Positions 9,024 to 9,846 of a stretch of 18,655 bases of DNA are shown in pieces. Position numbers and translations under genes: made by a program. The stretch lies in the UHGV virus genome UHGV-0139183; one strand, 5' to 3'. The notes beneath the pieces were generated by a model. The model saw only the letters and a program-made list of their open reading frames with translations. It was not told where the DNA came from and did not search any database. Every line of letters starts with the position of its first letter. The stretch's first letter is position 1. The DNA is from a virus.

Positions 9024-9637
9024 TGAGCAAGAAAACCATGACTACAGCGGTGCTGAATGAATCGCGGCTGGCAACAGTTGCAGGAGAGGTTGTTGTCCAC
9101 AGCTACGATAATAAGACGCGGGAATACCTTTACACGTCAACCGAATATCTGGCTGTAGGCGTTGGCCTTCCTGCACATTCATGCACTGATGCCCCCGGGG
9201 AAAGGCGGTCTGGTTATGTGATTTGCCGCACTGCTGACCTGACCGCGTGGGAGTACGTGCCGGACCATCGGGGTGAGACAGTCTATAACACAGAAACCCG
9301 TGAGGCAGCAGAAATCACCACTCCGGGTGATTACCCTGAAAACACAACCACTGTCGCCCCGTTAACGCCATACGATAAATGGGATGGTGAGAAATGGGTG
9401 ACCGATACAGATGCGCAACATCGTGCCGCTGTAGAAGCGGCAAAAACACAACGCCAGTCGCTGATTGATACTGCAATGGCTTCCATTAATCTGATTCAGT
9501 TGAAATTGCAGGCCGGGCGAAAACTGACGCAGACAGAAACCACCCGGCTTAACGTCGTGCTGGATTACATTGACGCGGTGACGGCAACTGATACCAGCAC
9601 CGCACCGGATATCAGTTGGCCTGAACTGTACGTCTAG
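9020..9637 (+). CDS. G: Tail fibre assembly protein (P2 gpG / lambda Tfa-like)
   Basis: 205 aa, overlaps the H stop; C-terminal half resembles lambda Tfa as recalled (e.g. ...VPDHRGETVYNTETREAAEITTPGDYPENTT...DTSTAPDISWPELYV). Confidence 0.85.
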   Translation: MMSKKTMTTAVLNESRLATVAGEVVVHSYDNKTREYLYTSTEYLAVGVGLPAHSCTDAPGERRSGYVICRTADLTAWEYVPDHRGETVYNTETREAAEITTPGDYPENTTTVAPLTPYDKWDGEKWVTDTDAQHRAAVEAAKTQRQSLIDTAMASINLIQLKLQAGRKLTQTETTRLNVVLDYIDAVTATDTSTAPDISWPELYV

Positions 9638-9846
9638 CTTACCATTACCCACGTGGGTAGCCCATTGCTACCCGCCGCTCGTTTCATTCCCTCCGGAGGA
9701 GCCCCTAAAAACTTCAGAGCCATATCGTCATCGACGGGCTTAATATCATCAGGCAAAACGCCATTTCCACGGTATGCGTCGAGTAACACTGTCGGGTAAA
9801 ATTGATTCGTTGACGCGCTATAAAAGTAAATATTCATTATCACCAT
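9634..9846 (-). CDS. Alternative tail fibre assembly protein (G'), short 70-aa form
   Basis: N-terminus MNIYFYSASTNQFYP resembles the conserved Tfa N-terminal motif; its start overlaps the stop of the upstream alternative fibre tip (ATGGTGA); its stop is convergent with the G stop. Confidence 0.5.
   Translation of the reverse strand: MVIMNIYFYSASTNQFYPTVLLDAYRGNGVLPDDIKPVDDDMALKFLGAPPEGMKRAAGSNGLPTWVMVS

Follow-up and report, generated by a model that had tools for sequence, protein, structure and literature searches.

Does a Tfa-like gene of some 70 codons, lying in the silent half of an invertible tail fibre segment and ending at the stop codon of a full-length tail fibre assembly (Tfa) gene, encode a naturally small protein, or is it what is left of a cassette that has been truncated? 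The window, by which we mean the whole stretch of 18,655 nucleotides analysed (UHGV virus genome UHGV-0139183), is the tail region of a P2-like prophage and is 100% identical, over the stretch tested, to the chromosome of Escherichia coli 23CRST047. An earlier note on this DNA had put forward both options, the second of them with a fibre switch that might work one way only, and had attributed the length of the short gene to its running into the convergent stop.

Tfa proteins are routinely needed in the engineering of phage fibres and retargeted pyocins. The structural model now in use (Mu U, Pam3 gp25) locates the conserved function of Tfa in its C-terminal domain (C-domain), and a recurrent class of proteins that consist of the variable tip-binding domain alone, and are under purifying selection, would be a natural test of that model.

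The invertible segment and its short gene

The features of the segment are listed in Table 1. The crossover sites are 27-nt inverted repeats, 81% complementary, that have the 13-nt core GGTTTGGGAGAAG in common and in the same codon phase. Fibre gene H is constant to approximately position 8562 and carries, in the sequenced orientation, a tip with a Collar domain (Pfam). The gene that follows it, G, is 205 codons long as the longest ORF and 199 as called by PGAP in the identical E. coli record, whilst the alternative tip, H'v, is carried by an ORF at 9840–10235 on the minus strand. Since a serine recombinase with an HTH_7 domain is adjacent, the crossovers are in frame both ways and both orientations occur in nature, the segment is of the Gin/Pin/Cin/Hin type. 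Its two halves measure approximately 1075 and 547 bp, which bears out the asymmetry (about 1.07 kb versus 0.55 kb) described earlier. NCBIfam has no model for the short protein, G or the alternative tip, and a scan for promoters and terminators gave nothing above background.

Table 1. Features of the invertible fibre segment and its surroundings in the window (coordinates are window positions).
Feature	Position	Strand	Evidence
Tail fibre gene H, sequenced orientation	7500–9023	+	Pfam Phage_tail_fib and Collar
Crossover site on the left (inverted repeat within H; core GGTTTGGGAGAAG)	8536–8562		Repeat search
G, two-domain Tfa of the current orientation	9020–9637	+	Pfam Caudo_TAP, E=3e-31; phrog_105, E=9e-90
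Candidate N-domain-only Tfa-like gene, 67 aa, MNIYFYS...GLPTWVMVS	9634–9837, including stop	−	ORF; 65–71-aa homologues; dN/dS; AlphaFold2; PGAP 67-aa CDS
Shine-Dalgarno-like AAGGGA, 8 nt upstream of ATG 9837	9846–9851	−	Inspection of the sequence
H'v, alternative variable tip with a lectin-type Gp53-like_C head, C-terminus ...CNWYAKGW	9840–10180, including stop	−	Pfam PF21882, E=4e-11; in-frame in-silico inversion
Right crossover site, inverted repeat	10181–10207		Repeat search
Gin/Pin/Hin-family serine invertase	10257–10829	+	Pfam Resolvase, E=3e-52; HTH_7, E=1.5e-15

The ORF listing of the window contains the ATG-started minus-strand ORF of 70 codons (9634–9846), convergent with G, just as the earlier note described. 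Its length of 70 residues holds for the longest ORF, which starts at ATG 9846, and probably not for the product: the true start is likely to be ATG 9837, giving 67 residues, because the Shine-Dalgarno-like motif lies 8 nt upstream of it, the stop of the H'v tip lies 2 nt before it and most homologues are called at 67 aa. One of these is a PGAP-annotated 67-aa "tail fiber assembly protein" of E. coli MARGA_3 (WP_052656902.1), which is 91% identical to the window protein. PGAP is inconsistent here, as the 67-aa gene of E. coli 23CRST047 (locus L005, 3039–3240, identical to window 9634–9837) is uncalled by RefSeq/PGAP although the MARGA_3 homologue is annotated. More generally, genes of this kind are often uncalled or labelled "hypothetical".

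At the other end, the stop codon of the short gene (9634–9636, minus strand) and the TAG of G (9635–9637, plus strand) have the palindrome CTAG in common. A C-domain reached by read-through or frameshifting beyond this stop was considered and rejected, as the sequence there is the antisense of intact G. The CTAG shared by convergent tfa stops recurs at L001 6201–6204, L009 5201–5204, L011 739–742, L015 3701–3704 and L016 567–570, besides window 9634–9637, and the 4-nt overlap is the same with each of the different partner Tfa proteins (205, 132 or 138 aa). Between loci, DNA similarity starts within the partner tfa gene, 35–120 nt from its 3' end (window 9515–9602), so the exchanged module seems to begin at the conserved C-terminus of the partner, to include the short gene and the tip and to reach as far as the invertase.

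Inversion in silico at the shared core places H residues 1–354 in frame with 113 residues of the Gp53-like tip, giving a 467-aa H' with the 67-aa gene directly next to it. The serine invertase would recombine the two crossover sites and join the constant part of H to the alternative tip; as the 67-aa gene begins 2 nt downstream with its own ribosome-binding site, tip and short protein would be made together in the flipped orientation.

Domain content and predicted fold

A profile built from six close sequences was compared by HMMER with 1.84 billion representative proteins and gave 317 hits; the alignment took in 148 of the best 150 of these 317 matches. The number of residues past the conserved W63 is bimodal, with 70–89 residues in 79 of the 148 (two-domain proteins of approximately 140 aa) and fewer than 30 in 40. 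Two-domain members make up 99 of the 139 classified. In the 67-aa protein the stop comes four residues past W63, where the linker of the two-domain relatives begins. The closest of these, P0008 (143 aa), shares 55% identity with the window protein across residues 4–63 (E=2e-23); past the shared N-terminal domain (N-domain) it continues with a Pro-rich linker, GDVPPPTKEE, and then a helical Caudo_TAP domain. Its gene directly follows a Mu-like Gp53-like_C fibre and its product is Caudo_TAP-positive in Pfam. The family profile also matches Mu U (PDB 5YVQ chain B, residues 107–175; E=1.6e-12), the match lying in the C-domain of the long members.

The 67-aa protein itself is matched by phrog_188, "tail fiber assembly protein", with E=2.8e-15. 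Together with the P0008 alignment, this upholds the Tfa-like N-terminus that the earlier note had recognised, and the protein is best described as homologous to the N-domains of bona fide Tfa proteins and as encoded in the Tfa gene position. Alignment to the two-domain relatives finds the C-terminal helical domain of the Mu U and lambda Tfa type absent, and the short protein is the whole N-domain of an approximately 140-aa two-domain Tfa and nothing more. Pfam Caudo_TAP (PF02413) scores it at 14.2 bits against a cut-off of 22.1, over profile positions 3–55 of 131 only. As it is below the Pfam threshold and has no C-domain, the protein is not filed as a canonical Caudo_TAP member. The length range of 175–205 aa given earlier for known Tfa proteins is too narrow: those that share this N-domain are typically some 140 aa long, and e14 TfaP, which serves a Gp53-like tip by way of a different N-domain, has 137 residues.

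AlphaFold2 predicts a compact beta-beta-alpha-beta-alpha-beta-beta domain for the 67-aa protein, with a pLDDT of 96.1 and the last strand at residues 61–65. The model thus depicts a complete domain, which speaks against collision with the stop of G as the cause of the length. The predicted fold has no match in the PDB, Mu U included.

A second profile, phrog_19350, has 70 positions and matches the 67-aa protein from end to end (E=1e-10), which shows that sequenced phage proteins already include the short form. We found neither an annotation nor a published description of phrog_19350, and the literature searched gives no description of N-domain-only Tfa proteins.

A proposed homology to the N-domain of the 132-aa Tfa of locus L001, based on a by-eye alignment, was dropped at a BLASTP E-value of 0.19. 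Other arrangements of the domain were also seen among the relatives. P0021 (211 aa) has the N-domain twice in tandem, and P0018 (461 aa) and P0122 (446 aa) combine a fibre with a Gp53-like head (ending ...FAVGY and ...LAIGQ) and a complete two-domain Tfa in one ORF. The latter may resemble an intramolecular chaperone, and may be real fusions or sequencing frameshifts. Five more profile matches of 504–623 aa have the N-domain near their C-terminus and may be of the same fibre–Tfa type.

Conservation, orientation and spread of the short form

A word-indexed search of 5.8 billion proteins for close homologues of the short protein gave six clusters of 67–70 aa with 75–99% identity, and one 121-aa protein, which is a fusion in a prophage remnant. 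The ORF length is kept in E. coli, Citrobacter, Mixta and metagenomes at 74–91% identity, and the close short genes always directly follow the same Gp53-like tip ending in ...CNWYAKGW. They are found in P2-like prophages of Citrobacter youngae, where a 132-aa Tfa lies opposite (L001), in a Mu-like plasmid prophage of C. braakii (L007), in Mixta tenebrionis, where a 138-aa Tfa and a glycine-rich tip lie opposite (L016), in C. pasteurii (L017) and in several metagenomes. Pfam finds the Gp53-like_C domain in the fibre ORF before the close short gene in the window, L001, L003, L007, L008, L010 and L016. The only disrupted close copies seen are the prophage-remnant fusion and one decaying silent paralogue. 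In the remnant (L003 5025–6366, and L004), an invertase and a Gp53-like tip are followed by the 121-aa ORF, in which codons 1–48 of the short gene run on into unrelated sequence, and no fibre constant region lies nearby.

In E. coli the cassette is rare, occurring in 3 of 5426 complete genomes, and a scan of the genomes with close sequences added only three more species. A nucleotide search of a phage collection found no isolated phage with a close cassette, the crossover and tip-proximal region alone being matched; a protein search of the collection gave relatives all below 60% identity, of which those inspected were 162–165 aa or uncalled, and none short.

Selection was estimated over the first 63 codons of ten close copies by pairwise Nei-Gojobori comparison. 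dN/dS is 0.13–0.58 at dS up to 0.59, no frameshift or premature stop occurs in the ten copies compared, and the excess of synonymous change is significant for the most divergent pair (p=2e-5, Fisher's exact test). The short ORF is therefore under purifying selection in the close copies. Some ten independent copies conserve it, at dN/dS values far below 1, which rules out a chance ORF. In the close group, tips are 95–100% identical and short proteins 74–91%, so the short protein is less constrained than the tip. A Spearman correlation of 0.77 between tip and short-protein divergence is driven by two clusters of related sequences and was not taken as co-evolution.

Both orientations of the segment are found in nature. 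Loci L011 (98.6% identical to window 8762–10198) and L010 (97%) are both inverted relative to the H constant region. In L010, where the short gene is in the active orientation, and in L008, the fibre is a single ORF (393 and 391 aa, respectively; Phage_tail_fib plus Gp53-like_C) followed by the 67-aa gene. L008, which is P2-like and also in the active orientation, has no Tfa-like gene other than the short gene after the fibre gene, and its fibre locus lacks a two-domain Tfa. In L025, a Serratia prophage with no invertase, the one Tfa-like gene, which comes after a 515-aa fibre (weak Gp53-like_C), encodes a 71-aa relative, and the cluster of this relative (P0011) is present on many contigs, including complete S. 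marcescens chromosomes.

These loci bear on the one-sided switch considered by the earlier note. On this explanation, the alternative fibre would not assemble in the absence of a full Tfa, flipped phage would be non-infectious and the sequenced orientation alone would be productive. Such a broken cassette would be in keeping with the missing conserved C-domain and with the silent orientation of the cassette in all three complete E. coli genomes that carry it. However, the flipped contigs and the loci in which the short gene is the sole Tfa argue against a dead cassette, short of proving flipped particles infectious, and tip and short gene are both under purifying selection, unlike a never-used cassette. 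We consider this explanation highly improbable, and the fibre switch should, from the loci compared, be read as two-sided.

Beyond the close group, five distant N-domain-only proteins (P0013, P0017, P0103, P0142 and P0011) are 65–71 aa long, 37–48% identical and complete ORFs, with in-contig stops verified. Their genes directly follow fibre genes or tips matching Gp53-like_C (loci L012, L021, L022, L023 and L025 in the Pfam check), four of the five above the Pfam cut-off and the fibre of P0011 (L025) weakly. If the N-domain-only class is delimited as complete ORFs of approximately 65–71 aa that end at most eight residues past the conserved G-x-P-x-W motif, then it takes in the window protein, P0002–P0006, P0011, P0013, P0017, P0028, P0103, P0120, P0121, P0132 and P0142. 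P0120, P0121 and relatives of P0103 and P0011 are on long contigs or complete genomes. Exact-sequence look-ups place the class in Serratia proteamaculans, S. marcescens, Siccibacter turicensis, Hafnia and other Enterobacteriaceae, with complete genomes for Serratia and Siccibacter and MAGs for Hafnia. The short form recurs in many enterobacterial prophages, and longer two-domain relatives of approximately 140 aa exist as well.

The distant members also bear on the proposed collision with G. In L022, a near twin of the window, a Gp53-like tip and a 65-aa gene face, in convergent orientation, a 202-aa Tfa and a collar-type tip, and a 65-nt spacer separates the 65-aa gene from the convergent Tfa, so its length does not come from collision with its neighbour. 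L012 repeats the order of invertase, tip and 67-aa gene opposite a 134-aa Tfa. Across L012, L022 and L025 the proteins end at the same domain boundary, the convergent gene being 13–65 nt away or absent, and the claim that the gene ends because of the G stop is not supported by this comparison. Truncation of the cassette fares no better, given the conserved length, the purifying selection and the short relatives in several genera; the option of a naturally minimal Tfa is supported by the wide conservation of same-length homologues after similar Gp53-like tips.

The N-domain-only proteins do not form one clade: on a neighbour-joining tree of the 63-residue domain, which is weakly resolved, parsimony counts approximately 21 changes from a two-domain ancestor. 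As they are scattered among two-domain members, the tree suggests that the Tfa C-domain was lost repeatedly. Some of these losses could be decay, and several short profile matches have frameshift-like tails.

Repeated loss leads to a further explanation, in which the short gene is a tolerated remnant. The C-domain would have been deleted from an approximately 140-aa Tfa, the Gp53-like head would fold and trimerise by itself, and a functionless N-domain would travel with the tip whilst the alternative orientation would remain functional. A report on AP22 gp53C, the founding Gp53 head, describes its purification in trimeric form and makes no mention of a chaperone (bioRxiv 10.1101/518761). The scattering of the N-domain-only forms, the faster divergence of the short protein compared with the tip and the clearly damaged state of some short relatives, the silent copy of L008 among them, also agree with a remnant. 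Yet a functionless gene is hard to square with the dN/dS values and the intact ORF in 10 of 10 copies, with the length of 65–71 aa and the ribosome-binding-site arrangement that distant lineages keep, or with a domain boundary that is respected exactly in a fold predicted to be complete. On this balance a remnant is unlikely.

Possible roles and relation to known systems

Taken together, the alignments and the selection estimates suggest that the short gene is genuine, encodes a single domain and is kept by selection, and is not a broken leftover. Its product is probably a naturally minimal, N-domain-only Tfa, which would bind the Gp53-like head as a helper or cap and leave trimerisation to the fibre itself. 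Binding could assist folding of the head or cap it, or the protein could stay on the head; tip binding and helper activity are what we infer from homology and gene position.

Several findings count against a minimal Tfa. The domain held to be the conserved functional core of Tfa is missing from the 67-aa protein; its Caudo_TAP score is below threshold, its fold has no PDB match and its cassette is rare in E. coli; it is more variable than the tip; and the scattered N-domain-only members fit recurrent loss of the C-domain, with a degenerate silent copy in L008 and frameshift-like tails elsewhere.

A bolder generalisation, which we put forward tentatively and regard as doubtful, is that fibres with lectin-type (Gp53-like) heads can do without the Tfa C-domain, which many lineages have lost, a free tip-binding domain of 65–70 residues being enough. 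This domain might then be no trimerisation chaperone but a cap or accessory that remains on the head and tunes receptor recognition. If the C-domain is indeed dispensable, the model of the C-domain as the universal core of Tfa needs qualifying. Gp53-like tips may also be transplantable with a 67-residue helper.

L008 has a segment of unusual composition. Both of its halves carry the same Gp53-like tip, in a 465-nt inverted repeat of 96% identity (4631–5095 and 6847–7311), and an Acyl_transf_3 gene (5555–6631) lies inside the segment. With the same tip in both halves and the acyltransferase gene between them, the main effects of inversion would be to exchange the short gene and to turn the acyltransferase gene round. 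In L008 the silent copy of the short gene (6744–6950) looks degenerate, as its ATG has become ATA and two near-invariant residues are lost.

This locus is relevant to the possibility that the 67-aa protein is a specificity factor, which would remain on the fibre head of the virion as Mu Tfa does and contribute to receptor binding or mask it, such that its exchange alters host range with the tip unchanged. The chaperones of Mu and Ur-lambda are reported in mature virions (PMC9608196), the L008 halves differ mainly in the short gene, and the short protein varies more than the tip. Against this, the silent L008 copy is degenerate in the manner just described, virion association of the 67-aa protein is putative, and a small intracellular helper fits the data equally well. 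A specificity factor is therefore decidedly improbable, and a minimal Tfa acting as helper or cap remains our preferred reading.

Among textbook systems, the window segment most closely resembles the e14 P segment of E. coli K-12 (pinE, stfP/tfaP, stfE/tfaE). In both, a serine invertase adjoins and the crossover core TTGGTTTGGGAGAAG is shared; the P-segment repeat is TTGGTTTGGGAGAAGG (PMC12529663), and the window core GGTTTGGGAGAAG matches it. As in the window, one e14 cassette joins a Gp53-like_C tip (StfP, E=8e-16) to a short Tfa (TfaP), and the other has a different tip and a Tfa of approximately 200 aa. The genes for TfaP and for TfaE (200 aa, with StfE) meet at their 3' ends in a segment adjoining pinE, and convergent tfa genes are likewise found in the window. 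The two short proteins differ in that TfaP, at 137 aa, has kept a Caudo_TAP C-domain (residues 58–132), which the window protein lacks, and the similarity between the TfaP N-domain and the 67-aa protein is marginal (E=0.005).

The two-domain Tfa proteins of approximately 140 aa, such as P0008, are closer in sequence. Their N-domain is homologous to the window protein over its full length and their gene likewise directly follows a Gp53-like_C fibre; they differ in the Pro-rich linker and conserved helical C-domain that the window protein is missing. One plasmid relative in this group is annotated yfdK.

The gene order of Mu U/U', lambda Tfa and P2 G is that of the window protein, with the Tfa gene following the fibre gene in the same orientation, and a co-oriented short gene directly after the tip was seen in every related locus examined. 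The Mu fibre and Tfa genes also lie in an invertible segment. North et al., in work of 2019 on Mu Tfa, reportedly found that the N-domain binds the distal fibre and that the C-domain oligomerises. A published account makes the same division for Mu U, with distal-fibre binding in a variable N-domain and oligomerisation mediated by a conserved C-domain (PMC9608196), and Tfa proteins are described there as modular, the variable N-domain being the fibre-binding part. In cyanophage Pam3 gp25, the fibre-binding N-domain is a small stand-alone module of approximately 55 residues, and a helical C-domain of approximately 100 aa trimerises (PMC9608196). By analogy with gp25, a domain of approximately 60 aa can plausibly suffice for tip binding; no sequence or structural match between the 67-aa protein and Pam3 gp25 was detected.

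Part-length matches are also seen for G, which is matched by PHROGs that cover its N-terminal part alone (phrog_7290 and phrog_15280) or its C-terminal part alone (phrog_3792, a "tail assembly chaperone" of 78 positions). Stand-alone halves of other Tfa types may, from these matches, also be present in phage genomes.
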